Part shown: piece after piece, positions 2,666 through 47,183 of the stretch
Layout: each line of letters begins with the position of its first letter
How positions within the stretch are numbered: the first letter of the stretch is position 1
NCBI GenBank assembly: GCA_021786315.1
Contig: JAJYNN010000002.1
Span: forward strand, 545,494 to 609,493
Source: a bacterium
GTDB lineage: Bacteria > Patescibacteriota > Microgenomatia > Daviesbacterales > UBA10151
Direction of reading: 5' to 3'
Length of the DNA: 64,000 nt
Notes under the pieces: model-generated
Told to the model about the DNA's origin: nothing
Seen by the model: only the letters and a program-made list of their open reading frames with translations
Database searches by the model: none
Translations under genes and position numbers: made by a program

Positions 2666-4126
2666 TTAAATTAATCTTCTGGACACCATTCTTCTTTCCA
2701 CCCAAGCCAAGTGTTCAGGAACTGATTCAGCTTGCAATGGTGTATTAACCGTTACTCCCCAAATGCCTGATTCAACCAAGAAGTCCAAAATTTCATGATG
2801 TAAAGCCAATTCCCCTTTTATTAAGACAGGAATCTTGGATTGATGCAAAATTTTAAAGGCAGGTTTTAAGAATTTTACCAAAGCCTGGACATGGTCCTTA
2901 TAAAATTGCCCTTCTGAAACCTCATATCCCCCAAGATTTTTTTGCAGTTCATCCAGATTCAAAATTATTCCGTCAATTCCTACCGTTAAATAATCCTCCA
3001 GATTTATAAAGTTCTCCGGTACCCCACACTCTAACCAAAAACGCAAAACCCCTTTTCGGCTGATTCCTCTAACTGCCAACTCTCTTTTAAGTTGTAAAAG
3101 TTCCCCGGATGTCCTCGTTAAAGGAATTCCCAGTTCTAAGTTATATAAGCTTTTCTTATTACGAATAAACAAAAAGGTCTTGGCAGTTTCATCCAAAATA
3201 CTTGTCTGATTTATAAGCCTTAACGTTCCCCGGATTTTGGAAGCATCAACAATATCCGGAAGTTTATAAATTACCGGTTTTCCGGGAAAACTCAAAGCTG
3301 ATTCCCCTATTTGAAAAACTAGATTATCAAATCCTTTGATCTTTTCTCCCTCAATTAAAATCCCGTCAATATTATGGGCAACTGCAAAACCCGAAGAAAG
3401 GTTTAAAAAAAGCTTAACCGCTTTTTTACAAAGCTCAACTTCAACCTTTTTTGTAATAACTATGTCCTCTGTCTTTGATACCGGTAGCGTTTGGGTAAAA
3501 GGAGATACGGAAACAATAAATGGTTTTCCCTCGATAATTAAAAATCTATATACTTGAGGAATAAACAGTTTCTTATTGGCATCCAAAACAACCTGGTCAA
3601 TTTTCTTCAACATTGGGGGCGGAAGTTTGGCTGGTGATTTGATTATTACCTCTTTTAAATCCGGGTCAAAATAAGCCGAGACTTCAGAAAACGAATCATG
3701 GACATTAAAAATTACCTGGGATGAAAGGTTAGAAGCTACTCCGTTTCCCAATCCATTATTCCAAATCTTTAGCTTAATTTCTTCAATCCAAATATTAAGC
3801 AATGCTTTCCAAAAATCATTCTTCTTTTTGAAAATTAAACCTTGAATAAAAAATGCTTTAAAATTTTTAGTTTCCTTCTCTAGTTCTTCAGGAATAGAAA
3901 TTTTAGCCAGGTCACTTTTAATTAATTCCAACCTGCTTTCAAACACTTCGCTTTTTATACCCTGGATGTGTTTCAAAATTACATTCAAAACAATTTCCGG
4001 AGGGGAAACAGCAACCCCTAAGACTACAGGAATTCCCGACCTTTGAAGCTTGGCTAAATTAAAGATATCAGCTCCCAAGATTGGTTGGTCTACTTCAGTA
4101 ATATGTTTTATCGGCAGAACAGTCAT
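2666..4126 (-). CDS. PEP-utilizing enzyme family protein (pyruvate,water/phosphate dikinase-like N-terminal and C-terminal domains; no obvious central phospho-His domain)
   Basis: The N-terminus (ILGADIFNLAKLQRSGIPVVLGVAVS) resembles the PEP/pyruvate-binding ATP-grasp domain. The C-terminus (LRFWLECGVPENF...GIDGIILNLDEL) resembles the PEP-utilizer TIM barrel. No catalytic His motif was recognised. Confidence 0.4.
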   Translation of the reverse strand: MTVLPIKHITEVDQPILGADIFNLAKLQRSGIPVVLGVAVSPPEIVLNVILKHIQGIKSEVFESRLELIKSDLAKISIPEELEKETKNFKAFFIQGLIFKKKNDFWKALLNIWIEEIKLKIWNNGLGNGVASNLSSQVIFNVHDSFSEVSAYFDPDLKEVIIKSPAKLPPPMLKKIDQVVLDANKKLFIPQVYRFLIIEGKPFIVSVSPFTQTLPVSKTEDIVITKKVEVELCKKAVKLFLNLSSGFAVAHNIDGILIEGEKIKGFDNLVFQIGESALSFPGKPVIYKLPDIVDASKIRGTLRLINQTSILDETAKTFLFIRNKKSLYNLELGIPLTRTSGELLQLKRELAVRGISRKGVLRFWLECGVPENFINLEDYLTVGIDGIILNLDELQKNLGGYEVSEGQFYKDHVQALVKFLKPAFKILHQSKIPVLIKGELALHHEILDFLVESGIWGVTVNTPLQAESVPEHLAWVERRMVSRRLI

Positions 4127-7240: not shown

Positions 7241-8025
7241 ACTCTGCTTGCCATCCTCATCTGTTCTTTAGCACCCGCCTCTTCTTCCCGGATTGCCTTC
7301 CCGGTTAATTTCAGGAAAGCCTGCTCTAAACTGGAAGATTTAGTTCTGGACTTCAATTCCTTTGGAGAACCTAAGGAAATAATTTTACCGTGATCAATAA
7401 CGGCCACCCGCCCGGCAACATCTTCTGCCTCATTCATATAATGGGTAGTAAAAAAGATGGTAATCTCTTCTTTTTTATTAAGGTTTTTAATATATTCCCA
7501 AATATGGTTTCTTGTTTGGGGATCCAGTCCCAGGGTTGGCTCATCAAGGAAAAAGATTTTAGGGTGATGAAGCAGCCCGCGGGCAATTTCCAGTCTTCTT
7601 TTCATCCCTCCGGAAAAAGTTTTTACTAAATTATTTCTTCTATCCCAAAGTTCAACAAACCTCAAAAGTTCCTCTGTTCTTTGTTTTCTGATATCTCCCG
7701 GTACCTTATATAAAACTCCGTGAAATTCCATATTTTCATAAGCCGTGAGTTCGTCATCCAAACTCGGATCCTGGAAAACAATGCCAAAAGTTTTGCGGGC
7801 CCCTTCAGAATCTTTTACCGGGTCAATTCCATTCAGCTCAATTTTTCCTTCTGTCGGATGAAGCAGTGTAGTCAGCATCTTAATGGTGGTTGTTTTGCCT
7901 GCTCCGTTAGGACCCAGGAAAGCAAAAATCTCCCCTTTGGGAACTTCAAAAGAGATACCATCCACTGCCGTTAAATCTCCGTATTTTTTAATTAGATTCT
8001 TTGCTACAACCGTATTTTTTGCCAC
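7222..8025 (-). CDS. ABC transporter ATP-binding protein
   Basis: Walker A GPNGAGKTT, signature LSGGMKRRLEIA, Walker B IFFLDEPT. Confidence 0.9.
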   Translation of the reverse strand: MAKNTVVAKNLIKKYGDLTAVDGISFEVPKGEIFAFLGPNGAGKTTTIKMLTTLLHPTEGKIELNGIDPVKDSEGARKTFGIVFQDPSLDDELTAYENMEFHGVLYKVPGDIRKQRTEELLRFVELWDRRNNLVKTFSGGMKRRLEIARGLLHHPKIFFLDEPTLGLDPQTRNHIWEYIKNLNKKEEITIFFTTHYMNEAEDVAGRVAVIDHGKIISLGSPKELKSRTKSSSLEQAFLKLTGKAIREEEAGAKEQMRMASRVWGGRR

Positions 8026-8075
8026 AGCTTTTAGTATAGCTCAAAAGTGTAAGAATTTGATAGGCAAAATGGAAA

Positions 8076-8107
8076 CTTTGTAAAAGCTATGGGTTTTATG
8101 GTATAAT
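8076..8107 (+). promoter_or_regulatory. candidate sigma70 promoter with extended -10 (TGgTATAAT) upstream of the RRM protein gene
   Basis: tttgtaaaagctatgggttttaTGgTATAAT. Leaves a ~140 nt 5'UTR. Confidence 0.35.
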
Positions 8108-8250
8108 TACCATGTACTCTGTTAGTGTGTAAAGAAACTGCGTGTTAGGTTGGCAGGATCTGAAGCTTAAGAGACTGTCAAACATTCTTCTTTGTGTTTA
8201 AACCCCAGAGAAAGTGAGTTGAAAAGAAAAAAGGTGGTGAATATTTTAAT

Positions 8251-8598
8251 ATGACAAAGTTATTTGTAGGCGGATTGCCTTATGCTGTCAACAGCGATGA
8301 ACTTAAGAATACTTTCAGCCAGTTCGGTTCAGTTTTATCTGCTACCGTTATTACTGATAAGTTTTCCGGCCAAAGCAAAGGTTTTGGATTCGTCGAAATG
8401 GAAAACGATGAAGAAGCCCAAACAGCTATCAAGGAACTTGATGGTTCAGATATGGGTGGTCGTAAGGTTGCTGTTTCAGTAGCTCGTCCCAAGGAAGAAA
8501 GACCTCAAGGAGGATTCAGACGCGACAACAATCGTGGTGGATTCGGTGGAGGTTTTAATCGCGGTGGACGCGATGATCGAAGAGGCGGAAGATATTAA
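8251..8598 (+). CDS. RNA-binding protein, RRM domain with Gly/Arg-rich tail
   Basis: RNP2 LFVGGL and RNP1 KGFGFVEM. C-terminal RGGFGGGFNRGGRDDRRGG. Confidence 0.9.
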   Translation: MTKLFVGGLPYAVNSDELKNTFSQFGSVLSATVITDKFSGQSKGFGFVEMENDEEAQTAIKELDGSDMGGRKVAVSVARPKEERPQGGFRRDNNRGGFGGGFNRGGRDDRRGGRY

Positions 8599-11317: not shown

Positions 11318-11517
11318 TTATTAATCCTTTCTGTTGCCATCACAAGATCTTTTTGTGAAACAAAAAGTAGACTTATGATTGCGACATTTCTCCTGTTCTT
11401 CATTTGACATTCCTTTCCCATTAAAAAAACCGCCTGTCCGCGGTGCAATAATTATACCTTTTTAAGCTTCAAATCACAAACATAAAGGTGACGCCTCGTC
11501 CGAAGGCAGGCGCCACC

Positions 11518-11862: not shown

Positions 11863-12138
11863 TCAAAACCATTTTTTTGCTTTAGGATTGCGATGAGGAC
11901 AACCAGGCCAACAACACGGCCTGCGCATACCTTCTTTAAGTTCCGAAACCACTCGCTTGACGTGTTCCTCTCTCGTCTCGGGTTTTTTAACAATAGTAAC
12001 CCAACAAATCCACTCATTACGGGCAAGTGGTGTAATACTCTCCCAAGCTTCTAGAGCTTTGGGATCAGAAATGAGAGCTTTTCGCAAATCATCCGGCAAG
12101 TCATGCACTACGCCACCGGGAATATTTTTTGGGGTCAT
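11863..12138 (-). CDS. YdeI/OmpD-associated (DUF1905/YdeI-like) family protein
   Basis: DLPDDLRKALISDPKALEAWESITPLARNEWICWVTIVKKPETREEHVKRVV is typical of YdeI. Confidence 0.6.
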   Translation of the reverse strand: MTPKNIPGGVVHDLPDDLRKALISDPKALEAWESITPLARNEWICWVTIVKKPETREEHVKRVVSELKEGMRRPCCWPGCPHRNPKAKKWF

Positions 12139-12434
12139 GAAGTTATTTTATCAAAGTTGTGACCCGGCTAACACTACTTTTTACTTCGTAAAAAGATGTT
12201 GTAATTCTCGCTTCGCTCAAATTATGTGGATTCGAAGGGCCTCTTCCTTAGTCAGACAGAAATAAAAAAGGCGAGGCATAAAACCCCGCTTTTTAATTGT
12301 GACCCGGCTGGGATAGGCACTCCTCGAAGACTCGGAGTTGAACCTCCTTAGCTGTGCCAGATGCGGAGATTCTCGATCCAATAACCGCCTCAAAAATGAA
12401 ATTGCGCTTGGAAAAACCAAACTCAATTTCATTG

Positions 12435-12506
12435 TGACCCGGCTGGGATTCGAACCCAGGACCAAAAGCTTAAAAGGCTTCTGCTCTACCGCTGAGCTAC
12501 CGGGCC
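12435..12506 (-). tRNA. tRNA-Lys (anticodon UUU)
   Basis: Reverse complement GGCCCGGTAGCTCAGCGGTAGAGCAGAAGCCTTTTAAGCTTTTGGTCCTGGGTTCGAATCCCAGCCGGGTCA folds as a cloverleaf. Anticodon loop CTTTTAA, T-loop TTCGAAT. Confidence 0.9.
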
Positions 12507-12618
12507 AGATAGCACTAGATATTTTACCTCAATTTGATCTCAGTTAAAAGCCTTTTGCTTTACTCTTTTATTACTTCTTTAATATTTGAAAGTTAAAGGG
12601 TGTGTCTATACTTTTCCC

Positions 12619-15091: not shown

Positions 15092-16069
15092 ATGGAAGAT
15101 AACCTGCCCAAATCTGATAATCAATTTTGGTATGAAAATCAGCCCAACCATAATGAACCTCTTCAACCACAACCAGAACCTGCTCCTGCTGGTCCTCCAA
15201 TTCAAATAACAGAGAATAAGAAATACTCAGAGAAAAATGACCCGCCGATGGTAGATGTTAAAGTGACCAATCCTGTCTCCTACTTTAAAAAGTGGGTTAA
15301 ACATCTTTTAGGTAATGAGGGTATTGATATCGGTTTCAAATTTAAAGTTAAACCCTTAACCGCCATAGCTTTAATGGTTGCCTTGGCTGTTTCTTTTGGC
15401 ACTGGTTATGGAACTGGATTAAACGCCGCTGCCGGAGTTTTATTCCCCAACTCCTCCCCGCTTTTACACAGAACCGTGATGTACCAAGGAAATTTGCAAA
15501 AGGCAGGTGACAAATATCTTCTAATCCTTCCCAATTCAGATACTTATACTTTAAAACCCAAATCCAATACTAATATTAACTTTCAAAATTTAACTGATGG
15601 CCCGGTTTTAGTTAAAGGAAACTTAACCAGGGAAGCGTTTGTGATTGAACCCTCAGAAGTTATATCTTTAGGTGGTTCAGCCCCTGAGCCGCAAGCTACC
15701 CTTACCCCAACTAACTCTTCCATCTCTAATCCCACCGATTTCCCTAGTCTTTACCCCAGCCTGACTTGGGAAGTAACTCAAGAAAAAGTTTTAATATTTA
15801 CTTCGGGAAAAAGAAAGATCGAACAAAATGGTGTCTACCTGGAATCTGCTCAGGTACCTACTCTTCCTCAAGATTTCTTGAATTACTATACCAATGAGCT
15901 ACAAACCAAAGGTTTTGAGGAAACCTTAAATTCCAAAGATCCGGAAGGAACCACAATCACCTTTGCCAAAAATGACCTCTACTTAACCTTCGGCATCAAA
16001 AACATCTTTAAAGGCTCAGGCGACACCCGCCAACTCTCCGGCTACAAAGCCTTCATAGAACATAACTGA
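15092..16069 (+). CDS. Pro-rich membrane-anchored hypothetical protein (paralog A of 26482..27273)
   Basis: The core DPPMVDVKVTNPVSYFKKWVKHLLGNEGIDIGFKFKVKPLTAIALMVALAVSFGTGY is shared with the island-borne paralog. Confidence 0.5.
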   Translation: MEDNLPKSDNQFWYENQPNHNEPLQPQPEPAPAGPPIQITENKKYSEKNDPPMVDVKVTNPVSYFKKWVKHLLGNEGIDIGFKFKVKPLTAIALMVALAVSFGTGYGTGLNAAAGVLFPNSSPLLHRTVMYQGNLQKAGDKYLLILPNSDTYTLKPKSNTNINFQNLTDGPVLVKGNLTREAFVIEPSEVISLGGSAPEPQATLTPTNSSISNPTDFPSLYPSLTWEVTQEKVLIFTSGKRKIEQNGVYLESAQVPTLPQDFLNYYTNELQTKGFEETLNSKDPEGTTITFAKNDLYLTFGIKNIFKGSGDTRQLSGYKAFIEHN

Positions 16070-16702: not shown

Positions 16703-16810
16703 CAACACTATTTTCTCAACCCTACTGGCCTTCAGGATTATTTTTTGTTAAAATTACCACTACGGCGCGTTCGTCATAGTGCGCAAGCGCCAGACGAACT
16801 ACCTTGAAAA

Positions 16811-18406
16811 CTAAATATAGATGGCGCGTTCGTCTAGAGGCCTAGGACACTGGGTTTTCATCCCAGGAATCGCGGGTTCGAATCCCGCACGCGCTACTGA
16901 GAGGGATTGTAAGAAGGTTGTGTTTGATTTCCTCTGCGCGGGTGGGGGCGCGCAGAGCTCTCTAAAGCCCTGATTGTAGTCTACGGAAAGTTGCCGATTC
17001 AATAAAAAGAAGTTCGAGCCGACAGTTTTTGCTCCTATGCTTAAATCGGAGCATGTATTTTTTGCGCGCGCGATTTTTGCGCACGAAAGTGCGCTTCCGA
17101 CCCACTCTCTCATAGGTTCGAGCCAACTCGAACCGTTTTGTCTTATTCTCTCCAAATCTTCCTGAATTTTAAGTTTTTGTTCAAAAACTTCGTTCTTTTT
17201 ACTTTTATAAGTTTCACCATCTATTACCTGATCCAAGAAACTATCAAGTAACAAATTGAGCTTTTTATCTAAAGTTTCCAGCTCGTTTTTTAGGGAGATT
17301 ATATTTTCCTCAATGAACTTTTGCTCCTCAACTTCATCCCGATCCATCCATTTATACCAATCATGAGCCCAACTTTCGGGAATAGACACATCAGAAACAA
17401 TCTTTCTTACTTGTAGTTCTAAATCTTCTTGAGAAATATATTTTTGAGAACAAGGTTTAATTTTCTTAGTGCATCTATAGTAAATAAAGGTTTGTTTATT
17501 ACCATTTTTATATTTTTTAGTATGAGTTTCGGTAGTAATAGCCGCACCGCACTCTCCGCACCTCATCAAACCTCTAAAAGCAAAATCATGGCCATTTTTC
17601 CTTGGTCTTTCAATTCTTTTTATTTCTTGTTGAGCAGAATCAAATAGTTTTTTAGAGATAAATGTTTTATGAGAGCCCTGATAATACTCACCGTTATACT
17701 TTAAAATCCCAATATAAAATCTGTTGGATAGCATTTTCTTTATTTGGTTTATATGTAAAGGTTTTTTGTTTATGGTTGTACTTACCCAACCTCGAGTTAA
17801 CCCTAATTTGTGAAGATAGAGGGATATTTCCTTGTAAGATTTACCTCCCTCGGCAAAAAGTTCAAAGGCCTTTTTAATTGCTAAAGAAGTTTCCGGATCT
17901 ACTTGAACAGTTTTTGTATTCGAGTCGTTTTTATACCCGAAAGGTGCTTTCATTGGCCAAACTCCATTGCGAAGTTTTTGCCTTAGCCCACGTTTTACAT
18001 TTTCTGATAAGTTGTCGACATAATATTTGGATTGGCCAAAGGCAATATTTAGCATAAATTTTCCCTGTGGAGTATTTTCAAACCAGAAGGTAGGGAATTT
18101 AAGGTTTAGAAGATTACCGGTATCCAAGAGGTAAATTATTTGGCCGCCGTCAATTGAGTTACGAGCTAATCTATCGGGATGCCAGGCAATAATACCTTGT
18201 GCCTGTCCTTTCTCGATCTTTTTTATTACCTCTGCGAATTTTTCTCTTCCGGGGAGTTTAGCGGTTTTTGACTCTGTTATAAATTCTTTGATTTCTAAGT
18301 TCTCTCTTTTGGCAAATTCTTGAAGCTCAGCAATTTGAGCCTCAATAGAAAGGACTTGTCTATCCTTCTCATCTGTTGATTTTCGGCAGTATGCTATATA
18401 TTTCAT
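16811..18406 (-). CDS. large serine recombinase (resolvase/invertase catalytic domain + recombinase domain + Zn-ribbon + coiled coil)
   Basis: N-terminal YCRKSTDEKDRQVLSIEAQ (Y-x-R-x-S motif), GIIAWHPDRLARN, a Cys4 ribbon CGECG...YYRC, and a coiled-coil tail. The frame has no stop until 16811, so it reads through IR1-left into the tRNA-Glu antisense. The true 3' end is uncertain. Confidence 0.8.
   Translation of the reverse strand: MKYIAYCRKSTDEKDRQVLSIEAQIAELQEFAKRENLEIKEFITESKTAKLPGREKFAEVIKKIEKGQAQGIIAWHPDRLARNSIDGGQIIYLLDTGNLLNLKFPTFWFENTPQGKFMLNIAFGQSKYYVDNLSENVKRGLRQKLRNGVWPMKAPFGYKNDSNTKTVQVDPETSLAIKKAFELFAEGGKSYKEISLYLHKLGLTRGWVSTTINKKPLHINQIKKMLSNRFYIGILKYNGEYYQGSHKTFISKKLFDSAQQEIKRIERPRKNGHDFAFRGLMRCGECGAAITTETHTKKYKNGNKQTFIYYRCTKKIKPCSQKYISQEDLELQVRKIVSDVSIPESWAHDWYKWMDRDEVEEQKFIEENIISLKNELETLDKKLNLLLDSFLDQVIDGETYKSKKNEVFEQKLKIQEDLERIRQNGSSWLEPMREWVGSALSCAKIARAKNTCSDLSIGAKTVGSNFFLLNRQLSVDYNQGFRELCAPPPAQRKSNTTFLQSLSVARAGFEPAIPGMKTQCPRPLDERAIYI
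16823..16896 (+). tRNA. tRNA-Glu (anticodon UUC)
   Basis: GGCGCGTTCGTCTAGAGGCCTAGGACACTGGGTTTTCATCCCAGGAATCGCGGGTTCGAATCCCGCACGCGCTA. D-arm TTCGTCTAGAGGCC is typical of tRNA-Glu. Anticodon loop TTTTCAT. Confidence 0.9.
16894..16996. repeat. IR1-left: 103-bp perfect inverted repeat (partner 18490..18592)
   Basis: Exact reverse-complement match to 18490-18592, verified base by base. Overlaps the last 3 nt of tRNA-Glu. Confidence 0.9.
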
Positions 18407-18489
18407 GGCAGTTTATCTTTAGGGGAAAAGTTCTTTTAGCGACAGCGTTTCCCAGAAATTTTTGCGTGTCTTCTTACTATCTTTCTTTA

Positions 18490-18592
18490 CGGCAACTTTC
18501 CGTAGACTACAATCAGGGCTTTAGAGAGCTCTGCGCGCCCCCACCCGCGCAGAGGAAATCAAACACAACCTTCTTACAATCCCTCTCAGTAG
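18490..18592. repeat. IR1-right: 103-bp perfect inverted repeat (partner 16894..16996)
   Basis: Exact reverse complement of 16894-16996. Lies between the recombinase start (18406) and IR2. Confidence 0.9.
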
Positions 18593-18703
18593 TACGGTAT
18601 CAACAAATTCGAACCTATTTCAAATCGACGTATGCATCGGTCGGTCGGTAGAAGCCCCTCCGCTTCGCGTCGGGGCCTTCTGATCTTTAAGCTCGGCCTT
18701 CGG
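18589..18703. repeat. IR2-left: 115-bp perfect inverted repeat (partner 28385..28499)
   Basis: Exact reverse complement of 28385-28499. Abuts IR1-right, sharing 4 nt. Confidence 0.9.
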
Positions 18704-18764
18704 TCGAAGCTCTGAAACTGTCGGTTCCGAAAACGCAAAAATTTCAAAGAACTTTTCCAAAAAA

Positions 18765-21700
18765 TTATGCACTAAGTTGTATGTATGGATAATCCTTGTA
18801 AAGATTCTCTGCCTGTTCATATACCTTATCAACCATCAAGTCCACCTCTGCAAATGAAATATTATTCCTTAATAAGACTAACCTCACATCTGCTCTTACT
18901 CGAGCTTTAATAATTTCATGGTTAGTCCAGTCAATTGCTATATCTGCCCTTATAGCATGTATAATTTCTTTCACAATCCTCTTTAGATTACTATCTTTTA
19001 AAGACTTCTTACCCAGTGATAAGGCATCATAAAAAGCTAATTCCTCTACTGTTAATCCAATCTCCTTGCCAACTTCACTTGCTTGTCTAATTTCTCTAGC
19101 CAGTTCTAATAATTTATCTATCACTTTAGATGAATTGATAATATTGTTTTCATATTCCTCAATGATTTCTTCTAATTTATTAAGGAGAGTGTCATACCTT
19201 AAAATATTTGTTCTTCTGCGCATTTTTAATTCATCTTTTAACAGTTTGTTTATTGCCTCAATTGTTAGATTCTTAAATCTAGATTTCTTAATATCTTCCA
19301 GGAATCTTTCATCCAATATAGAAATATCAGGTTCCTCTCTCCCATTTTGAGAAAATATATCTATTACACCCTCAGCGACTATATTTTTTGAGATTAGATC
19401 TTTAATCGCGGTTTCTGTTTCATTACTTATATAGATTGGGTCTACAGTAGTGTTTTTAATGATAATTTTTCTAACTCCTTCGAAAAATTCTAGTTCTTCC
19501 CGAATATTATTTGCCGCTTTATGTGGCATTACTAAAGAGAAAAATTTATATAGTCTGCTGGAAAGGCTTAAGTATTGGTCTTTTTGTGCTGTATTTATAC
19601 CACCAGATACCGGATCCGTTAAAATTCCATTAACCGCTCTTGCAAAAAGTGACGCCAGTTCGCTACTAGGTAACTTATGCCAGTTGGTATATTCAATCCC
19701 TTCAAAAAATTTCTTTACTTTTTTATAGTGTTCTAACATTTTCGCGACCATCTCCTCTATTGGAACCATGGCTTGTTTTTGAACATCCGAAGTGTAGATT
19801 GCTAAAGCTTTCTTTAAGTTATCAGCAACACCAATATAATCAACAATTAACCCACCCTCTTTATCTTTATAGCGTCTGTTAACCCTAGCAATTGCCTGCA
19901 TCAAAGTATGACCTTCAAGAGGTTTATCTAAATAGAGTGTATTTAAATGAGGAACATCAAAGCCTGTAAGCCACATATCACAAACGATAACAATTTTTAA
20001 AGGATCTTCAGGATTTTTGAATCTTTTCTCAATTTCCCTATTATCTAACTCTTCTTGAATTTGTCCCTGAAAATCCTTACTGCCAGAAACAACAACAGCA
20101 ATTTCCGGTGCACCCTTCATTGTTTTGATAATTTCGTACATTCTTGCAGCAATTCTTCTACTCATAGTCACAAGTAATGCCTTTCCTTTATATCTTCTAT
20201 TTATAAAATGAAAAACGACATCATAAGCCACTTTTTGTAATCGATCCTCCGCTCCAATAGCGCTCTCCAAAGTAGCCCATTTATTCCTTAAGACGTCTTT
20301 TGTATCTATTGGATGCTCAGCTAATAATTGATCAAAGTCCAAATCAATGTATTTGTTGAAAACATGTAGAGGGGTTAATCGTCCTTCATAGTAGATTGGC
20401 ACCGTTGTTCCGTCCTCAACTGCTTTATCAATTGGATATTCACTAAATTCCTCACCAAAGACCATTTGTGTATTTCTGTTTTGCAAAGAGATTGGAGTAC
20501 CAGTAATACCCATAAAAGAGGCATTTGGTAAAACATCTCTAACATTGCCTGCAAATGTGGCATATTGCGATCTGTGCGCTTCGTCTGCAATCACGATAAT
20601 ATTTTCTCTTTCCGATAAAGGTTCTCTCGTATCAAACTTCTGAATAGTAGTAAATAGAACCTCGGATCCAGCTCCTTTTAGCTGATTAATTAATCCAGCG
20701 ATACTGCCTGCTTGTTTTACAGTGGGGTAACCTGTTCGCAAGAAAGTTTTATACAGCTGCTGATCCAAATCATTACGGTCTGTTAAAAACAGTATTGTCG
20801 GGCTTTTTAGTTGCTCCGCTCTTTTAGCTTTATTAACATAGAAAACCATAGATAAAGATTTTCCGCTTCCTTGTGTATGCCAAAAAACTCCAATCTTTTT
20901 ATTACTAACGATAGCTTGTAAAGTTCTTCCAATCGCTTTGTTCACGCCAAAATATTGATGATACATCGCCATCTTCTTGGTAAATTTAGAAGCATCTTTC
21001 TCAGCGTCTGCCTCAAAGACAATAAAGTTCTCAATTAGATCAAGTAAATGATTTTTATTAAACATTCCCTTTATCAAAAGTTCTAATTCTGACTTCTCTA
21101 GATTTTTTTCGTTCTCACTCTCTATTCCTTTCCAAACATTAAAAAAGTCGAAGGAAGACGAAATAGTTCCATGCTTCGCCTTCATTAGATCGCTGATAAC
21201 AAGTACCTGGTTATACAAAAATATCTTTGGAATTTCTTTTTTATACAAGTCGTGAATTTGTGAGTATGCGTCGGCAATTGTCACCTTTCCATCAACGGGA
21301 TTTTTTACTTCAAATAATCCCACGGGAATTCCGTTAATAAAAACGACCACGTCTGGAATTCTTATAGAAGATCCTTGAACAGAAAATTGGTTAACTACTA
21401 AAAACTCGTTGTTATCCGGATTTCTATAATCAATAATATTTACGATCTCACCTTTAAGATCATTATTTTTGTCTTTGACTTCTACTCTTATCCCTTCCGT
21501 CAACCACTTAAAAACTTCTTTGTTTCCTAACTCTAAATCCTGATGATCATATTTAGTGATCTTATCTACAACCTCGTTAACTTTTTCATCTGGAATATCT
21601 GGATTTATTCTTTTTAAAGATCTTTTTAGTCGCGTCTCTAGAACAACCTCTCTATAATCACTACGTTCTTGAAAAGTTCCGCCAGGGGAGATATCAGGAC

Positions 21701-21782
21701 CATATGCATGTTCATAACCCAATTCATTGAGCCATTCTAATACTGGTTTTTCTGCTAAATTATTTTCATTAAGTTTTGACAT
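18765..21782 (-). CDS. hsdR: type I restriction enzyme R subunit HsdR
   Basis: HTQGSGKSLSMVFYV (Walker A), IVIADEAHRSQY (DEAH box), helicase C motifs. 1005 aa. Confidence 0.95.
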   Translation of the reverse strand: MSKLNENNLAEKPVLEWLNELGYEHAYGPDISPGGTFQERSDYREVVLETRLKRSLKRINPDIPDEKVNEVVDKITKYDHQDLELGNKEVFKWLTEGIRVEVKDKNNDLKGEIVNIIDYRNPDNNEFLVVNQFSVQGSSIRIPDVVVFINGIPVGLFEVKNPVDGKVTIADAYSQIHDLYKKEIPKIFLYNQVLVISDLMKAKHGTISSSFDFFNVWKGIESENEKNLEKSELELLIKGMFNKNHLLDLIENFIVFEADAEKDASKFTKKMAMYHQYFGVNKAIGRTLQAIVSNKKIGVFWHTQGSGKSLSMVFYVNKAKRAEQLKSPTILFLTDRNDLDQQLYKTFLRTGYPTVKQAGSIAGLINQLKGAGSEVLFTTIQKFDTREPLSERENIIVIADEAHRSQYATFAGNVRDVLPNASFMGITGTPISLQNRNTQMVFGEEFSEYPIDKAVEDGTTVPIYYEGRLTPLHVFNKYIDLDFDQLLAEHPIDTKDVLRNKWATLESAIGAEDRLQKVAYDVVFHFINRRYKGKALLVTMSRRIAARMYEIIKTMKGAPEIAVVVSGSKDFQGQIQEELDNREIEKRFKNPEDPLKIVIVCDMWLTGFDVPHLNTLYLDKPLEGHTLMQAIARVNRRYKDKEGGLIVDYIGVADNLKKALAIYTSDVQKQAMVPIEEMVAKMLEHYKKVKKFFEGIEYTNWHKLPSSELASLFARAVNGILTDPVSGGINTAQKDQYLSLSSRLYKFFSLVMPHKAANNIREELEFFEGVRKIIIKNTTVDPIYISNETETAIKDLISKNIVAEGVIDIFSQNGREEPDISILDERFLEDIKKSRFKNLTIEAINKLLKDELKMRRRTNILRYDTLLNKLEEIIEEYENNIINSSKVIDKLLELAREIRQASEVGKEIGLTVEELAFYDALSLGKKSLKDSNLKRIVKEIIHAIRADIAIDWTNHEIIKARVRADVRLVLLRNNISFAEVDLMVDKVYEQAENLYKDYPYIQLSA

Positions 21783-21783
21783 A

Positions 21784-22602
21784 TTAGTGATCTTCCAATT
21801 GTAATTTTTGTTGAGGTTCTTTATATGACTCTATATCAACTACTTTAATTTTGGGAACCTCATAATCACTATTTCTTATTACTATCCCTCTCAACTGAAC
21901 TTTTTCCATTTCAAGATATTCGTGAAATTTCGTCGTACTCTTTTCTTTATCCAAAGGAGAAACATTTAAGGTGTACCCTTTATAAATAAATCCTAAATCA
22001 TTTAATTTTTTATTTATCCGTGTAATTTCTCCATCTATAACAACTTCCTCTCCGTTTCTAAGTTCCGGTAATATGGGATCTTCTTGTTTATCTACATAAA
22101 ATTGATACTTATTATCGCAAGTAATCTTGAATGACTTATCTCCTATAACGATTTCCGCATGTTCGTTGTATTCGCTAACTGGCCTCGCCATTTTTTCTGC
22201 ACCTTTTCTGAAATCATAACTTCTACATAATTCAAAGACCTTCTTGTCGGAAATGGCGTCTAACAATTCTTTTGTGGGATTCTTCAAGCTATTCGATCCA
22301 AATCTATCGATTATTACAAAGGCTGATACTATTATTGTGGCTACATAACTTATTCGCTCTACGGTTTGCCAGGGGTGCTTCTGAACATATATAAGCTTTG
22401 TTCTAACCGAACCATTTTCAATTGGAAGAACGTATATATTATCGTAAGCCAGCATTCCTATTTTTGCTGCTTCTTTTAAACATGTCTCCAAGCCAATAAT
22501 TGCTTCTCCTAACTCTTTAGCTGGCATTGCACTTTTTTCCGCAGAATACACTAAGAATATTTCCGATGAAGAGGGATCGACTTGGAATAGTTGTTGATTC
22601 AT
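21784..22602 (-). CDS. hypothetical protein embedded between hsdS and hsdR (no recognisable domain)
   Basis: 272-aa ORF, translationally coupled on both sides (1-nt gaps) inside the hsdM-hsdS-X-hsdR operon. Confidence 0.5.
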   Translation of the reverse strand: MNQQLFQVDPSSSEIFLVYSAEKSAMPAKELGEAIIGLETCLKEAAKIGMLAYDNIYVLPIENGSVRTKLIYVQKHPWQTVERISYVATIIVSAFVIIDRFGSNSLKNPTKELLDAISDKKVFELCRSYDFRKGAEKMARPVSEYNEHAEIVIGDKSFKITCDNKYQFYVDKQEDPILPELRNGEEVVIDGEITRINKKLNDLGFIYKGYTLNVSPLDKEKSTTKFHEYLEMEKVQLRGIVIRNSDYEVPKIKVVDIESYKEPQQKLQLEDH

Positions 22603-23745
22603 CTAAATTGTTATTTCTCCTTTCATTAATTTTGGTAAAAGCAAATCACGCAAAGCAGTTAATTTTTGATTTTCCAGCTTTAAACTGATCATAGTTCTGT
22701 AAGTAACATCAAAAATATTTATATTTTTATTGTCAGATATAAAAATATTTTGTTCTTTTAAATGCTCTTTTTTAATATGTCCCATGGTCGTAGCTTTGGC
22801 ACCCGCCTGTTGTTGAAAAAATTTTAGCTTCGACTTAAGAAGAAAATATATAAACCCTTTGGAAAAATCACTTGTTGGAACTACATTAAATATATGCTGG
22901 TTTAATATCGCCTTATCTTTATCCCAGATATACAAATCTACTGTACCAGACCAAGAGAATAGCAAGTCACCGTTTTGGATGTAATATTTATCGTCCACCT
23001 TTTTGTCTATCCATTCAGTATTATCTGAAACTCCTCTGTTTAAGTCAGCAATTTTTATTAGCGGAAGTCCTTTCTTCATTCTGTTTGTAATTTTTCCAAA
23101 AGCCCCGCCATTAATATAATTCGCTATATCCAACAATGAATATTTAGTACCTTCATTAGAGGAGAACCATTTTTTAAAAAATGTCTGGGCCATTTCTTCT
23201 AAAGTTTTTGAAATTTTATTGTTCACTTCAATCTTTTCATCTAATGCAGCTAAAATTCTGGAAATTTTTTTTTGTATAGACAATGGAGGGGTTGGAACTA
23301 AAACATTCTCGAAAGTACCAAGATTAATATTGTCTTGTGCGCTACCGATGGCATAACTTTGAATATTTCTCTTAAGATATTGCAGAGAATATAGAATAAA
23401 ATCTGGATCGCTTTTTTCTTCGTCTGCTAAAAAACCGATTACACTATCAGGGAAACACGCCGGAAAAGTTAGTTTTCCTAAATCTGCAATATTTGCTGCG
23501 ATCGTTATACAAATTGTATTAACGGGCCACATCCTACTTTGTTTTAAACCATTTTCACTGTATGTTTGTGAATATGAAGTTATTCGACCACCTGAGGCTT
23601 TCACATCACCTGTTTGTATAAATGGGTACGGACCACCATACAATATCCTTGCGTCTCTTGGCCGATGTCGAGATCTTCCTCTATTAAGTTCACCTAACTG
23701 AGTTAATTTTTTTAATTGCCAATTATCTGGAATCTGATTTTGCAT
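22603..23745 (-). CDS. hsdS: type I restriction-modification specificity subunit HsdS (two target-recognition domains)
   Basis: 380 aa. Duplicated TRD/conserved-helix architecture. Positioned between hsdM and hsdR. Confidence 0.85.
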   Translation of the reverse strand: MQNQIPDNWQLKKLTQLGELNRGRSRHRPRDARILYGGPYPFIQTGDVKASGGRITSYSQTYSENGLKQSRMWPVNTICITIAANIADLGKLTFPACFPDSVIGFLADEEKSDPDFILYSLQYLKRNIQSYAIGSAQDNINLGTFENVLVPTPPLSIQKKISRILAALDEKIEVNNKISKTLEEMAQTFFKKWFSSNEGTKYSLLDIANYINGGAFGKITNRMKKGLPLIKIADLNRGVSDNTEWIDKKVDDKYYIQNGDLLFSWSGTVDLYIWDKDKAILNQHIFNVVPTSDFSKGFIYFLLKSKLKFFQQQAGAKATTMGHIKKEHLKEQNIFISDNKNINIFDVTYRTMISLKLENQKLTALRDLLLPKLMKGEITI

Positions 23746-23746
23746 A

Positions 23747-25537
23747 TTAATAATTAATCTTTTTTAGATTTTCTAAAATTTCCTTTTCTAATTTTTCAGA
23801 TTTTGTGAAATATTGTTTTAGTTCTGATTCTAATTCTTTCATCTTTTCTTCGAACGGAACTCCATCCTCCTCTTCATCCTCCACTCCAACAAAACGACCC
23901 GGTGTTAAAACATAACCACTTTTTACAATTTCCTCTTTTGTTGTTGCCTTACAAAATCCGGAAACATCTTTATATTCTCCATTTTCGCTCCTCCAAGCCC
24001 TCACAGTATTAGCAATTAGCTGAACTTGTTCTTCATTAAAAGTCACTTGTTTTCGAGAGATTTGAGTAAAATATTTTGAGTCTCGAGCATCAATGAAAAG
24101 AGTTTCTCCTTTTCTGTTTCTGAATCTGCCGGATTCTTTATTTTTTGTGACAAACCATAACGACACTGGAAGGGAAACATTAAAAAATAGTTTTGGAGGA
24201 CAAGCAATTATTACATCAATCAGATCATCCTCAATCATTCTTTTTCTGATTTCACCTTCCTTGCCGGAAACAGCCAACGCTCCATTAGCCATTACAAATC
24301 CAGCTATTCCATTTGGGGTTAAGTGGTTTATAAAATGTTGAATCCACATAAAGTTAGCATTTCCTTTCGGAGGAGTGCCATAAACTAATCTCGGATCTTT
24401 TTCAGAAAGACGATCTGAATCCCATTCTGCATTAAATGGAGGATTAGCCAGGATAAAATCGACTTTAAGTTCTCTGAACTTGTCATCATAGTAAGAATTA
24501 CCAAATTGGATATTTCCAAAAACTCCACGGATAGCAAGATTCATCTTGCAGAGCTTTAAAGTTGTTTGATTACTTTCTTGGCCGAATATGGATATTTTTG
24601 TCGGATCTTTATGGTGCTCTTGCAAGAATTTGCTGGACTGGACAAACATTCCACCAGACCCACAACATGGGTCTAAAACCCTACTGTTTTCATAAGGTTC
24701 AAGAATTTCAACTAAAAGTTTTACTAGCGAACGAGGTGTATAAAATTCTCCTCCTCTTTTACCCTCAGCATCAGCAAACTGTCCCAAGAAATATTCATAG
24801 ACTCTACCAAGTAAATCTTTCTCTCTATCCTCATCATCGTTGAAATCTATCCGGGAAAAAATATTAATGAGTTCTCCTAAGATTTGACTTTCAAGTGGAA
24901 CGCGAACATAACTCTTTGGCAGAACTCCTGTCAGCTGTTCAGGGTTTTCATTTTCTATAGCTTCCATAGCATCGTCGATATACTTCGCTAAATCTGATAA
25001 GGCAGCTTTGCTTCTCAAATATTCCCATCTGGCGATTTCTGGAATATAAAAGATCCCCTCCTTCTTATACATGTCTTTATCTTCCAAAATCATTTCTCGA
25101 GCAGCGGGGTTAGGGATATAGTATTGCTTGTTTTTGGAATCACTCATCCATTTTTGAAGTTTTTCTCTTCTTTGGTAAAAAGAATCAGAAATATACTTAA
25201 GGAAAATAAGACCTAAAACGACATTCTTGTAATCAGAAGAATCAATATTACCCCTAAGTCTATCTGCAGCTGCCCATAGCTCTTTTTCAAAATGAATATC
25301 TGTTTTAGGTTTACTAGCTAAATCCCGAGCTTCCTTTGCTGTAGCTTTTTGAGTTTGGATAATTCTATCTTTAAAATCCTGAGGAAGAGTATTGTACTTT
25401 AGAAGATATTTTTTACCCTCTGTTCGTGTTTCGATTTCTCCAGCATTAATTTTACCTTGGAGTTGCTTTAAAACAGCCTGACGAGATATACCTAATATCC
25501 TGGCGATATCACTAATTGAGATAAAATTTTCATCCAT
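23747..25537 (-). CDS. hsdM: type I restriction-modification N6-adenine methyltransferase HsdM with extra N-terminal HTH-like domain
   Basis: HsdM_N motif ELWAAADRLRGNIDSSDYKNVVLGLIFLKYISD, SAM motif LDPCCGSGGM, catalytic NPPF (FILANPPFN). The first ~85 aa (ISISDIARILGISRQAVLKQL) are an additional HTH. Confidence 0.95.
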   Translation of the reverse strand: MDENFISISDIARILGISRQAVLKQLQGKINAGEIETRTEGKKYLLKYNTLPQDFKDRIIQTQKATAKEARDLASKPKTDIHFEKELWAAADRLRGNIDSSDYKNVVLGLIFLKYISDSFYQRREKLQKWMSDSKNKQYYIPNPAAREMILEDKDMYKKEGIFYIPEIARWEYLRSKAALSDLAKYIDDAMEAIENENPEQLTGVLPKSYVRVPLESQILGELINIFSRIDFNDDEDREKDLLGRVYEYFLGQFADAEGKRGGEFYTPRSLVKLLVEILEPYENSRVLDPCCGSGGMFVQSSKFLQEHHKDPTKISIFGQESNQTTLKLCKMNLAIRGVFGNIQFGNSYYDDKFRELKVDFILANPPFNAEWDSDRLSEKDPRLVYGTPPKGNANFMWIQHFINHLTPNGIAGFVMANGALAVSGKEGEIRKRMIEDDLIDVIIACPPKLFFNVSLPVSLWFVTKNKESGRFRNRKGETLFIDARDSKYFTQISRKQVTFNEEQVQLIANTVRAWRSENGEYKDVSGFCKATTKEEIVKSGYVLTPGRFVGVEDEEEDGVPFEEKMKELESELKQYFTKSEKLEKEILENLKKINY

Positions 25538-25627
25538 GCCGGAAGCAGTATAGTACTAAAAAATAATTCTGTCAAGTTGTCATCGTGACAACCTTAAATT
25601 AGAAATAATTGCGATACAAGAGTTTCT

Positions 25628-26485
25628 TCAGTAACACTTTTTAGTGCTACTACCCTCTAAATAATAAGACTCTTTTTTAGGATCAAACCGATATGTATTC
25701 TTTTCTTCGGTATCACTTCCATGATCTCCACAAGACCAACCTTGCTCAACCTTCCCTTCAGAATTTGGCAGAAAGTTATCGACCCAGTAGAAAGTTTGAT
25801 CTTTGTTGATTATTGGATAGACAACAGCTTTATTATTGGCCTTACTATATCCCAAGACTAAATGTTCAGTATGTCCACAAGCCAAAGTAAAACCATTTAG
25901 GAGAAACTCATAATAATACCCATCGCCGTTTAAATCCTGAAAATTCATCAAGTCCACATCTGTATACTCGAGTTGTTCTACAGAAGGTTCGCTACCTTCC
26001 AATTTCAAATAAGCCGGATCAGCGTTCATTCTGATATTTTGATAAGCTAAACGGATATTATTGCTTGGAGGTAATGGTTTCCCTGTACTTAAATCTACAT
26101 TAGAGCCCGAACCCGGAATCGAAACATCATTAATAAGTTTGTTGTTTTGTATCAGGGCTAAATGATAGTTACCTTCAATCGCTCTTCCCTCTATGCCGGA
26201 AGCACAAGAAGTATAAGCAGACCATCTGCGGGATGGTTCTAATAATTCGTCTGTTTTAGAGTTTAATACATAGAGCACCAAGTACGATTCAGGAGAAAGA
26301 TTGGGAATTTTCTTATATTCTCGGAGTAATGCTTCTTTGGGAATTAAGTTCTTGATAGAACTGTCGCTAATATTTGTTTTATCGGGTTTATTTATGTTTT
26401 TTGTATCAATTTTTAAAGAGGGAAAATAGAAGAAACCAACAATCAACACAAATGGAATGATAAATAATAACTTTTTTCTGCTCAT
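25628..26485 (-). CDS. secreted/membrane-anchored Cys-containing hypothetical protein
   Basis: N-terminal TM LLFIIPFVLIVGFFYF. No recognisable domain. Confidence 0.4.
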   Translation of the reverse strand: MSRKKLLFIIPFVLIVGFFYFPSLKIDTKNINKPDKTNISDSSIKNLIPKEALLREYKKIPNLSPESYLVLYVLNSKTDELLEPSRRWSAYTSCASGIEGRAIEGNYHLALIQNNKLINDVSIPGSGSNVDLSTGKPLPPSNNIRLAYQNIRMNADPAYLKLEGSEPSVEQLEYTDVDLMNFQDLNGDGYYYEFLLNGFTLACGHTEHLVLGYSKANNKAVVYPIINKDQTFYWVDNFLPNSEGKVEQGWSCGDHGSDTEEKNTYRFDPKKESYYLEGSSTKKCY

Positions 26486-27273
26486 TTATTACTATCAAAA
26501 ATATTTATTTCAGATACATTAATAACATTGGCTTCTCTAGTTAGGTTTCCTTTAACCATTACTTGTTTGTTTATAGAATTGTTGATGGTATTGAGGGCTG
26601 TTTGGGATTTTGGGAGTAGCTTCCATAAAGTTGTATCGGGTAAAGATAAATAGTATTGTCCGTCTTGAGTTTTCTGAATAGTTCCTTGATAGACAATAGC
26701 TCGATGAAGGATAGGGCTTGAGTTAGGGAAAAGAATTCCGGCAGCCGAATTTAGACCAGAGGTATAACCAGTTCCGAAAGAAGCTGCGAGGGCAATCATA
26801 ATAGCTACTGCAGTCATAGGCTTAATTCTAAACTTAAATCCAATATCTATGCCCTCGTTTCCCAAAAGGTGTTTAATCCATTTTTTAAAGTAAGTTACGG
26901 GATTAGTAACTTTCACATCCACCATTGGAGGATCATTATTTTCTGAGTATTTATCATTTTGGGTTACTTGGATTGGAGCAGGGTAAGAGGAATCAGGGTG
27001 ATCAGGGATATTAGGGGAAATTGGAGGATTGGGATTATCAGGGACAGTATAATCACTTTTAATAAAGTGTCCTTGGGCATCTCGCTTTTGGTGTTTTGCT
27101 AATTCACTTTGAACAGGGTCTATTAAGTCAGGAGAAGGATTTGAAGGAATAGGAGGAATGGGGGTATCAGGGAAATTGGGGGGATTCGGGGAAGGAGTTT
27201 GAGCTAATGGTTCGGGTTGAGTTGGTTGTTGAGGGGTAAAGGAATTATTAGGATCAGGCAGTTTGTCATCCAT
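26482..27273 (-). CDS. Pro-rich membrane-anchored hypothetical protein (paralog B of 15092..16069)
   Basis: Shares the DPPMVDVKVTNPVTYFKKWIKHLLGNEGIDIGFKFRIKPMTAVAIMIALAASFGTGY core with the chromosomal paralog. Confidence 0.5.
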   Translation of the reverse strand: MDDKLPDPNNSFTPQQPTQPEPLAQTPSPNPPNFPDTPIPPIPSNPSPDLIDPVQSELAKHQKRDAQGHFIKSDYTVPDNPNPPISPNIPDHPDSSYPAPIQVTQNDKYSENNDPPMVDVKVTNPVTYFKKWIKHLLGNEGIDIGFKFRIKPMTAVAIMIALAASFGTGYTSGLNSAAGILFPNSSPILHRAIVYQGTIQKTQDGQYYLSLPDTTLWKLLPKSQTALNTINNSINKQVMVKGNLTREANVINVSEINIFDSNK

Positions 27274-27339
27274 AAATCCAGTATATCTACTAGATTAGAA
27301 AGGTGCAACTGCAGCGGAAATATACAAAAAGTTATCCAA

Positions 27340-28330: not shown

Positions 28331-28384
28331 TTCTTTAAAAATCGCGCGCTTTTCTGTCTCTTAGCAAAAAATACCAGAGCGAGG

Positions 28385-28499
28385 CCGAAGGCCGAGCTTA
28401 AAGATCAGAAGGCCCCGACGCGAAGCGGAGGGGCTTCTACCGACCGACCGATGCATACGTCGATTTGAAATAGGTTCGAATTTGTTGATACCGTACTAC
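28385..28499. repeat. IR2-right: 115-bp perfect inverted repeat (partner 18589..18703)
   Basis: Exact reverse complement of 18589-18703. Confidence 0.9.
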
Positions 28500-28510
28500 A
28501 AAAGAAAAAG

Positions 28511-28540
28511 TCCTCCCTTCGGGGAGGCTTTTTGTTTTTT
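28511..28540. terminator. bidirectional rho-independent terminator
   Basis: CCTCCC-TTCG-GGGAGG hairpin with a T-run on the + strand (CTTTTTGTTTTTT) and an A-run before it. Insulates the island from the sigma/anti-sigma operon. Confidence 0.65.
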
Positions 28541-28639
28541 AACTGTGATTAGGCAAGAATCTGCGCATCTCGCAGAGCTAAGCAGGTTCGATCAGGCAAA
28601 GCCTGACAACATCTTCGAGCAAAGCGAGAAGTAGTGTTA

Positions 28640-28657
28640 ATCCCCGCACGCGCTACT
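28640..28657 (+). repeat. direct repeat of tRNA-Glu 3' end (putative attR core)
   Basis: atccccgcacgcgctact versus tRNA 16882-16898 atcccgcacgcgctact (one extra C). Preceded by the motif acaacatcttcgagcaaagcgagaagtagtgtta. Confidence 0.7.
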
Positions 28658-47041: not shown

Positions 47042-47183
47042 CTTGCGGGACCGACGGGACTAAGACCACCTTTTTGTTCTTCGAACAAAAACGATCTTGT
47101 CTTCTCGCTTCGCTCGAAGATCGAACCAACTTAGAACTTCGTTCTGCGTATATTTCTCTCCCAAGCAATCAGCCAATAAAAAA

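Follow-up and report, generated by a model that had tools for sequence, protein, structure and literature searches.

Tiny hairpin-armed units behind tRNA-Lys and other tRNA genes of a patescibacterial genome: candidate stubs of serial site-specific integration

Site-specific integration at tRNA genes

Genomic islands and prophages of the Islander type use a tyrosine integrase acting at the T-loop sublocation of a transfer RNA (tRNA) gene. The tRNA is regenerated, its displaced 3' fragment remains as a direct repeat on the same strand, the identity block extends from the T-loop to just past the discriminator base and repeated use of one tRNA stacks the fragments. These marks are also found at the tRNA-Lys(UUU) gene of a Patescibacteriota genome (GTDB lineage Microgenomatia; Daviesbacterales; UBA10151), in a stretch of 64,000 nucleotides (nt) referred to here as the window (assembly GCA_021786315.1, contig JAJYNN010000002.1, forward-strand positions 545,494 to 609,493). 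Two further copies of the tRNA-Lys 3' end follow the gene and enclose two short units, the proximal Lys_a and the distal Lys_b. Contrary to Islander-type elements, the inserts of the window measure 58-160 nt instead of kilobases, they are gene-less and integrase-less, no autonomous relative was found, and we infer the type of the recombinase.

Streptococcal cis-mobilizable elements (CIMEs) are a second close parallel. They have att-type repeats on both sides and no recombinase, and they accrete in tandem at a tRNA 3' end. The Lys units likewise carry both att repeats without any recombination or transfer gene. CIMEs are kilobase-scale and have a cognate integrative and conjugative element or integrative and mobilizable element that uses the same site, whereas no cognate element is known for the units, of which any mobilisation would be hypothetical: the window, 84 related loci, a metagenome scan and IMG/VR yielded no such element. 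In tycheposons, later arrivals push earlier elements outward, leaving extra partial tRNAs (10.1101/2020.12.28.424599). The tycheposon arrays of Prochlorococcus resemble the present locus by the streamlined genome, the outward pushing and the remnants with extra partial tRNAs, but these remnants are described as containing fragmented integrases and cargo in kilobase-scale islands (10.1101/2020.12.28.424599). The units of the window, by contrast, are reduced to a terminator plus a promoter-like arm, and many different tRNAs have arms of one family. Finally, the ssrA-specific islands of Dehalococcoides, which depend on large serine recombinases, are a case of site-specific integration at a small-RNA gene (PMC3146451). 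The window also holds a serine-recombinase island, at tRNA-Glu, which has only CTAC in common with its target and no palindromic arm at its ends.

The footprint at tRNA-Lys is an ordinary mark of repeated site-specific integration at a tRNA. Its unusual aspects are the tiny size of the inserts and their recurrence behind many tRNAs. With moderate confidence, we interpret the units as stacked stubs or miniature derivatives of small tRNA-targeting cassettes, deposited by serial site-specific recombination.

Three copies of the tRNA-Lys 3' end

An intact, regenerated tRNA-Lys(UUU) stands at one boundary of the array (ARAGORN; Rfam tRNA model, 73.5 bits). The 19-nt plus-strand text ATTGTGACCCGGCTGGGAT, which reads ATCCCAGCCGGGTCAC-AAT on the tRNA strand and comprises the last 16 nt of the tRNA and three flanking bases, is found at the gene and again, without a mismatch, as copy 2. 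The 13-mer TTGTGACCCGGCT (plus-strand text; AGCCGGGTCAC-AA on the tRNA strand) occurs a third time as copy 3, which directly adjoins the end, GTAGTGTT, of a palindromic arm. The spacing from start to start is 135 and 140 nt. An earlier note, made from the sequence alone, had located the three copies at these same positions, and its coordinates agree with the sequence match. The two motifs it described are also in place on the tRNA strand, ACAACATCTT...GTAGTGTTA at 12169-12202 and GAGCGAAGCGAGAATTAC at 12201-12218, within Lys_b. The former recurs at 28606-28639 and 53413-53446, the latter at 51405-51422.

Chance and low complexity were rejected as sources of the copies by shuffling and by a control for strand and direction. 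With up to two mismatches allowed, six sites of the window match the 13-mer, three of them perfectly, where 0.99 +/- 1.09 would be expected, and 0/100 shuffles reached six. The objection named in the earlier note, that the copies might be low-complexity matches, does not hold, since the Lys repeat is not of low complexity and exceeds the shuffles. The direction control covered the last 15 nt of 66 tRNAs from the window and the 84 related loci, again with up to two mismatches: the reverse strand had no copies, compared with 12 located downstream on the strand of the tRNA. The single upstream match belonged to a tRNA cut by the end of its locus and was set aside as an artefact. An identical Lys arrangement is present on the Logan contig L001 (run SRR13178629), an independent assembly, and is therefore not an assembly artefact of one contig.

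The locus had been described in the earlier note as serial integration and excision scars at one att site. Serial insertion is borne out by the common orientation of the copies, their position downstream only, the intact tRNA and the unrelated intervening segments. "Excision scars" is a misnomer, since attB is restored without residue when excision is conservative and site-specific, whereas the DNA between the copies is residual or miniature element DNA with both junction repeats, composed of a terminator, a short middle and a distal palindromic arm.

Two unrelated units behind one tRNA

Lys_a contains an A/T-rich hairpin with 17-nt arms (12395-12411 and 12417-12433) followed by TTTTT, and its distal arm is degenerate (CTCC-GAGTCTTCGA-GGAG-TGCCT). 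Its middle aligns with that of the tRNA-Glu unit at 30/34 positions and its hairpin region with the tRNA-Lys unit of a related Daviesbacteria contig (L103) at 33/41. Lys_b has a terminator-like hairpin (12271-12289) with a T run behind it. CTAAGG and TTCGAATCC strings occur in its middle, and its distal arm (12169-12206) is palindromic, matches the covariance model of the arm with 50.8 bits and folds as DNA with z = -3.6. The unit is similar to the module upstream of tRNA-Gly (44/49), to units behind tRNA-Ile at locus L099 (44/50) and tRNA-Arg at locus L007 (31/37), and to the Asp unit of the window (27/31).

No significant similarity exists between Lys_a and Lys_b (local score 14 against a shuffle maximum of 24). 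The two are therefore different inserts and not the products of slippage, and a tandem duplication of one unit at tRNA-Lys was rejected on the same ground. From their sequences they appear to derive from two sub-lineages of one family. Lys_b, with copy 3, is presumed to be the older and Lys_a, with copy 2, the younger, on the usual assumption that a newcomer recombines with the intact tRNA. Lys_a has the longer copy (19/19).

The same layout behind other tRNA genes of the window

Four of the six tRNAs of the window (Lys twice, Glu, Asp and Thr) are followed by a gene-less unit of 58-160 nt closed by a direct copy of tRNA positions ~58-74 (Table 1). The displaced copy mostly covers the segment between A58 in the T-loop and position 74; as a same-strand 3' fragment at the outer boundary, it measures 19 and 13 nt at tRNA-Lys, 17 nt at tRNA-Asp and tRNA-Thr and 17 nt plus an extra C at tRNA-Glu. 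Most units seem to start with an intrinsic terminator. Terminator-like hairpins next to the tRNA were found by scan in Lys_b and, on both strands, in the Asp and Glu units. The arms of the Glu and Thr units are identical at 32/33 positions. Over the whole family the units range from 36 to 194 nt, with internal deletions in the Thr, Pro and Lys_a units. The repeated block measures 11-13 nt in the distal Lys unit of two species and 19 nt in Lys_a; a block of 17 nt is found at the Asp, Thr, Glu, Arg and Pro tRNAs. Such a variation by element lineage fits attP identity blocks better than target-site duplication.

The arm is also found apart from any tRNA fragment. One module lies directly upstream of an intact tRNA-Gly (51470-51541), where it overlaps a promoter-like site judged by eye (TTGACG-17-TATAAT); in the opposite direction it faces a gene for a protein of 141 amino acids (50866-51291). 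This module is 95% identical (53/56) to the L099 tRNA-Ile unit. Another copy, read on the opposite strand, ends 21 nt before the start codon of BipA (11317). The ~13 kb beyond the window contained no new tRNA.

The units do not belong to a described RNA family, a candidate rejected for want of any Rfam match beyond tRNAs. Only tRNAs passed an Rfam 15 scan of the window at gathering thresholds, and e-value scans of 12100-12560, of 27250-28520 and of positions 7900-8300 of the related locus L057 gave nothing credible beyond tRNAs.

Table 1. Positions of the tRNA-associated units, displaced tRNA ends and neighbouring features in the window
Feature	Positions	Strand	Content or basis
tRNA-Lys(UUU), intact	12434-12506	minus	ARAGORN; Rfam tRNA; sequence
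Copy 1, tRNA-Lys 3' end and 3 flanking nt	12431-12449	minus	sequence
Lys_a, proximal unit, 116 nt	12315-12430	minus	inverted repeat, alignments
Copy 2, displaced tRNA-Lys 3' end	12296-12314	minus	19/19 to tRNA; positions 59-74 and AAT
Lys_b, distal unit, 126 nt	12170-12295	minus	terminator scan, motif searches, covariance model, DNA fold
Copy 3, outermost displaced tRNA-Lys 3' end, 13 nt	12157-12169	minus	positions 64-74 and AA
tRNA-Glu mini-unit, about 140 nt	28500-28638/28639	plus	terminator 28512-28527, middle segment, palindromic arm
Displaced tRNA-Glu 3' end	28639-28656	plus	AATCCCCGCACGCGCTAC, one extra C
tRNA-Asp unit, about 150 nt	47045-47211	minus	bidirectional terminator 47183-47201, GAGCGAAGCGAGAAG, arm 47061-47104
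Displaced tRNA-Asp end	47045-47061	minus	AGTCCCGTCGGTCCCGC, 17/17
tRNA-Thr unit, about 59 nt, without terminator	53386-53462	plus	two GAGCARAGCGAGAAG boxes, arm 53409-53446
Displaced tRNA-Thr end	53446-53462	plus	ATTCTCACCATCGGCTC, 17/17
Arm module without tRNA fragment	51360-51456	plus	two GAGCGAAGCGA boxes and arm; covariance model 40.7 bits
Further palindromic-arm copy, outside model training	11338-11375	plus	covariance model 34.8 bits, E = 3.6e-5
tRNA-Glu	16823-16897
Large serine recombinase	16811-18406	minus	Pfam PF00239, PF07508, PF13408 (Resolvase, Recombinase, zinc-ribbon)
HsdR	18765-21782
HsdS	22603-23745
HsdM	23747-25537

A conserved palindromic arm

The arm is an imperfect palindrome of ~35 nt, ACAACATC-hairpin-GTAGTGTT, in which ACAACAT and TAGTGTT frame a variable, perfectly paired stem and its loop. 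It directly adjoins the displaced end in Lys_b, in the Glu, Thr and Asp units, in the Arg unit of L007 and in the Lys unit of L103. A GAGCRAAGCGAGAA box is located in the loop or just upstream of the arm. One shape is common to all ten copies folded, in which a bulge of 2 nt separates the outer stem AACAT/GTGTT from an inner stem. The fold surpasses the shuffle mean in seven of these copies, and z is below -2 in five. In an alignment of 11 sequences, pairing was observed in 89.9% of cells against 44-61% with the partner slid, and four pairs (10 cells) had double-sided changes with a covariation score reached by 0/500 shuffles, the structure having been derived from the same sequences as those used in the test. 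The covariance model R1, built from the arm copies, recovered all its training copies and two outside the training set, in the L099 tRNA-Ile unit and at 11338-11375 of the window.

The arm is located just upstream of BipA, of the gene for the 141-residue protein and of a membrane-protein gene at the related locus L146, each time in the same orientation, which supports a promoter or 5' regulatory role. We read the conserved GATGTTGTAAT, which is ATTACAACATC in reverse complement, as similar to an extended -10 box. A promoter region is the probable identity of the arm. A strict promoter scan detected no promoter inside the units. Since the promoter-like orientation points toward the tRNA, a unit would read from promoter to bidirectional terminator with almost nothing between. 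Comparison with integron attC sites, dif/Xer sites and IS200/IS605 ends led us to set all three aside as models for the arm: their defining sequence and spacing do not fit.

Related genomes

Eighty related loci were collected by a search with BipA, which is 81% identical to its homologue in a Microgenomates metagenome-assembled genome (MAG). The proteins place the organism among the Patescibacteria, close to Candidatus Daviesbacteria. The FAD oxidoreductase beside tRNA-Lys has its nearest homologues at 68% identity, in non-syntenic positions. A metagenome scan for ACAACATCT-N8-24-AGTAGTGTTA returned 84 loci; five were judged to be members of the family (L085 and L136, both equivalent to L007, together with L099, L103 and L146) and the rest chance matches.

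The same footprint recurs behind Arg, Pro, Ile, Lys and Glu tRNAs in other Daviesbacteria and Patescibacteria. Units were found behind tRNA-Arg(UCU) and tRNA-Pro at L007 (133 and 36 nt), behind tRNA-Arg(UCG) at L023 and L028 (102 and 60 nt), behind tRNA-Ile at L099, behind tRNA-Lys(UUU) at L103 and behind tRNA-Glu(CUC) at L057, L062 and L072 (147-194 nt). These tRNA-Glu(CUC) units are absent from the syntenic loci L036, L037, L054 and L069, the one case in which presence and absence form a clear pattern.

According to the earlier note, a locus identical in distant relatives would be an ancient structural feature. Part of this is seen at L103, where the tRNA-Lys(UUU) unit has the same truncated junction, GTAGTGTT followed by AGTCGGGTCAC. 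In both L103 and the window, however, the 11-nt tRNA-Lys copy matches the tRNA variant of its own genome, and at L006 the tRNA-Lys(UUU), 25 nt from BipA, has no unit at all. The flanking synteny differs between L006, without a unit, and L103, with one unit and the same distal junction as the window. The own-variant end of L103 and the empty locus of L006 suggest that the tRNA-Lys locus is variable rather than a fixed ancient structure.

An intact example of the layout with one gene is provided by L019, a Daviesbacteria MAG, where an 881-nt insert behind tRNA-Arg(UCG) (3096-3836) carries a single gene with an NYN domain (Pfam PF01936). The gene reads toward the tRNA, and a promoter-like region is found at the distal end beside the displaced fragment. 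This fragment equals the T-arm of the working tRNA-Arg of relatives, whereas the working tRNA of L019 has a different T-arm. The insert would thus have supplied a new 3' end, as integrase-type recombination does, unlike target-site duplication. At L028 the displaced fragment also differs from the working tRNA, less clearly than at L019.

Two kinds of unit outside the window have additional tRNA-derived segments. The tRNA-Ile unit of L099 (1411-1551) contains, besides a copy of positions 58-74 (15/17), a perfect 20-nt fragment that starts inside the anticodon, which suggests a nested second integration at the anticodon-loop sublocation. The tRNA-Glu(CUC) units contain an inverted copy of the tRNA 3' end, e.g. 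CCCCAACGGGAATCGCA (L057 8056-8190, L062 2190-2355, L072 9770-9895), which pairs with the terminal direct copy and closes a three-hairpin fold (z = -2.8 to -4.5) with GNRA/GAA loops, covarying stems and a string like GAGGAAAGUCC. It has no Rfam match and could, according to the folding model, be an undescribed structured RNA. Inverted copies of this type are absent from the units of the window.

Origin of the units

If the units are stubs or miniature derivatives of cassettes, two successive site-specific integrations into the 3' end of tRNA-Lys(UUU) would have left the three copies as junction repeats. The att site of the incoming element would carry a block of tRNA sequence that begins in the T-loop and reaches position 74, covering 59-74 in the proximal unit and 64-74 in the distal one, and then its own intrinsic terminator. 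Recombination inside the common block would rebuild an intact tRNA with a terminator and push the previous 3' end outward, where it would now adjoin the distal arm of the element, the palindrome of which would overlap a promoter-like box pointing back toward the tRNA. The terminator, the short middle and the promoter arm that remain today would make up either the cargo-less stub of a small cassette or a miniature derivative that is not autonomous. Members of this family would have colonised tRNA-Glu, tRNA-Asp and tRNA-Thr here and other tRNAs in related genomes. A tyrosine integrase that acts on the T-loop sublocation is the probable enzyme. We likewise infer in which order the inserts arrived, that the arm serves as a promoter and that cargo was lost.

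Several observations weigh against this interpretation. No recombinase accompanies the units: Pfam scans of the larger open reading frames (ORFs) of the window gave only the serine recombinase that uses CTAC, and no tyrosine recombinase, and no recombinase for the units was found in precomputed Pfam listings for neighbouring contigs or near the 84 loci of the metagenome scan. The Lys units themselves, at 116 and 126 nt, contain no gene, whereas an Islander carries its integrase gene inside. Neither ~1 Mb of related loci nor the JGI metagenome scan yielded a full-length element with the arm, and the scans of IMG/VR gave chance matches only; a scan of GTDB genomes for the motif GAGCRRAGCGAGAAGTAGTGTT had zero matches, in a collection that does not include the species. 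Short units outnumber gene-carrying ones by about 12 to 1 and several displaced ends are still perfect (17/17 or 19/19), which is awkward for many independent decays and favours recent activity or selection on the copies. A simple double-stranded attP arm would not need the compensatory changes seen here. Lys_a, supposedly the younger, has the more degenerate arm, and the history of the Lys locus may include collapse or exchange, because the single unit of L103 looks like a hybrid of Lys_a and Lys_b. A further reading, namely that the units are living gene-less cassettes of ~60-160 nt with hairpin arms, moved in trans by a recombinase, colonising the segment from T-loop to 3' end of many Patescibacteria tRNAs and supplying terminators or promoters, is conceivable though rather unlikely.

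We also regard it as unlikely that the units are functional small transcription units or structured RNAs, in which the arm would be a promoter or operator, a short RNA antisense to the tRNA flank would end at the bidirectional terminator and the tRNA 3'-end copy would be kept for use, e.g. in pairing, processing or mimicry of the tRNA end. The compensatory changes and the common fold of the arm (10/10 copies tested) agree with such a role, as do the extended -10-like GATGTTGTAAT, the orientation of the module before three protein genes, the perfect match of several displaced ends, the 11-nt Lys copy that follows its own tRNA variant in L103 and the window, and the inverted copy that closes the three-hairpin fold of the L057, L062 and L072 units. 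That inverted copy is missing from the window, however, and whole units of the window fold no better than shuffles (z = -0.4 to -1.7). The lengths of 36 to 194 nt and the internal deletions of the Thr, Pro and Lys_a units also argue against a functional RNA, together with the lack of Rfam matches and of promoters in the strict scan.

Still-mobile miniature elements, a tRNA-specific analogue of miniature inverted-repeat transposable elements (MITEs), would be moved by a T-loop-recognising enzyme acting in trans and would produce a long target-site duplication from the T-loop to the end of the tRNA. Near-identical arms at different tRNAs of one genome (32/33 between Glu and Thr), the 56-nt module that is 95% identical between the window and L099, the constant 17 nt from A58 of most duplications and the lack of an autonomous partner nearby are as expected from such elements. 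We nevertheless judge this quite improbable: the duplication is not of constant length (11-13, 15-17 and 19 nt), the units have no terminal inverted repeats, the palindrome being at the distal end only, and neither the repeats nor the fixed-length duplication of a MITE or DDE derivative is present. The fragment of L019, and less clearly that of L028, differs from the working tRNA, and L019 fits an imported 3' end better than a copied one. We know of no transposase family that makes duplications of ~17 bp, which was also counted against this explanation. Decayed tandem duplications of the tRNA-Lys gene, or replication slippage, would account for T-loop-like strings inside the units (TTCGAATCC in Lys_b, GGTTCGATC in Glu and Asp) and for the second tRNA-Ile fragment of 20 nt at L099. 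Local alignment to the resident tRNA left nothing but the terminal block above shuffles, this L099 fragment excepted, and decayed tRNA halves were rejected as a description of the units. The 5' halves are missing, Lys_a and Lys_b are not related to each other and the same foreign arm adjoins the fragment at five different tRNAs, usually at A58, so that such an origin is very improbable.

The tRNA-Glu island and other features

The tRNA-Glu locus carries an 11.6-kb island (16811-28499 region) with a large serine recombinase and a type I restriction-modification system. The recombinase has the three domains of its class, and the CTAC crossover (16894-16897 and 28496-28499), a short shared core, is defined by exact repeats of 103 and 115 nt. 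Its reading frame crosses the junction and runs antisense over the whole tRNA-Glu. After removal of the island in silico, tRNA-Glu joins position 28500 and is followed by terminator, middle, arm and displaced end. The motif which the earlier note assigned to the end of this island therefore belongs to the older mini-unit. The island separated the mini-unit from tRNA-Glu later, as a distinct event. Its serine recombinase was rejected as the enzyme behind the units by its different crossover and arms.

An internal inverted exact copy of the joined island ends (16894-16996 and 28385-28499) is present at 18490-18703, just upstream of the recombinase gene. It is attP-like, and the gene is thereby flanked by 103-nt inverted repeats. 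The inverted joint is either a real structure, invertible or nested, or the product of assembling integrated and excised forms together. In another run, the Logan contig stops 29 nt into the island repeat. Within the island, 27274-28384 is a segment of 1.1 kb without an ORF of at least 90 amino acids, with G+C-rich hairpins and no Rfam match, and 28289-28310 is a 22-nt exact inverted copy of the recombinase codons at 18251-18272. The segment 26482-27273 is paralogous to a chromosomal gene for a 325-residue protein of unassigned function (15092-16069), with the common motif NDPPMVDVKVTNPV.YFKKW.KHLLGNEGIDIGFKF.

At two tRNA genes, a repeat of the first 12-16 nt of the tRNA lies ~60 nt upstream and forms a hairpin with its complement, which comes next: at tRNA-Glu in the window (16764-16800; GGCGCGTTCGTC ... 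GACGAAC) and at tRNA-Lys in L006 (2320-2385; GGGCCGATAGCTCAAC ... GTTGAGCTATC). This hairpin is a possible leader element mimicking the 5' end of the tRNA. A dispersed 20-nt palindromic family, CGCAAGGCGTCACCTTGCAC, has five copies in the window (16076, 31254, 38594, 38614 and 50837), two of them adjacent, and may represent a terminator or an element like the repetitive extragenic palindromic (REP) sequences.

Significance

Bacteria of the candidate phyla radiation have tiny genomes, and to our knowledge few mobile elements have been characterised in them. Within 64 kb, integration footprints are carried by four of six tRNAs, two deep at tRNA-Lys, and the same is seen at other tRNAs in relatives. 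The 3' ends of tRNA genes thus appear to be a major and repeatedly used entry for foreign DNA in this lineage. Much of this DNA would soon shrink to a terminator plus a promoter-like arm. Islands in these genomes, for instance the one with restriction-modification genes at tRNA-Glu, can be mapped at little cost by means of the conserved arm and the displaced tRNA ends. If the units move on their own, they would represent a new kind of miniature element specific for tRNA genes.

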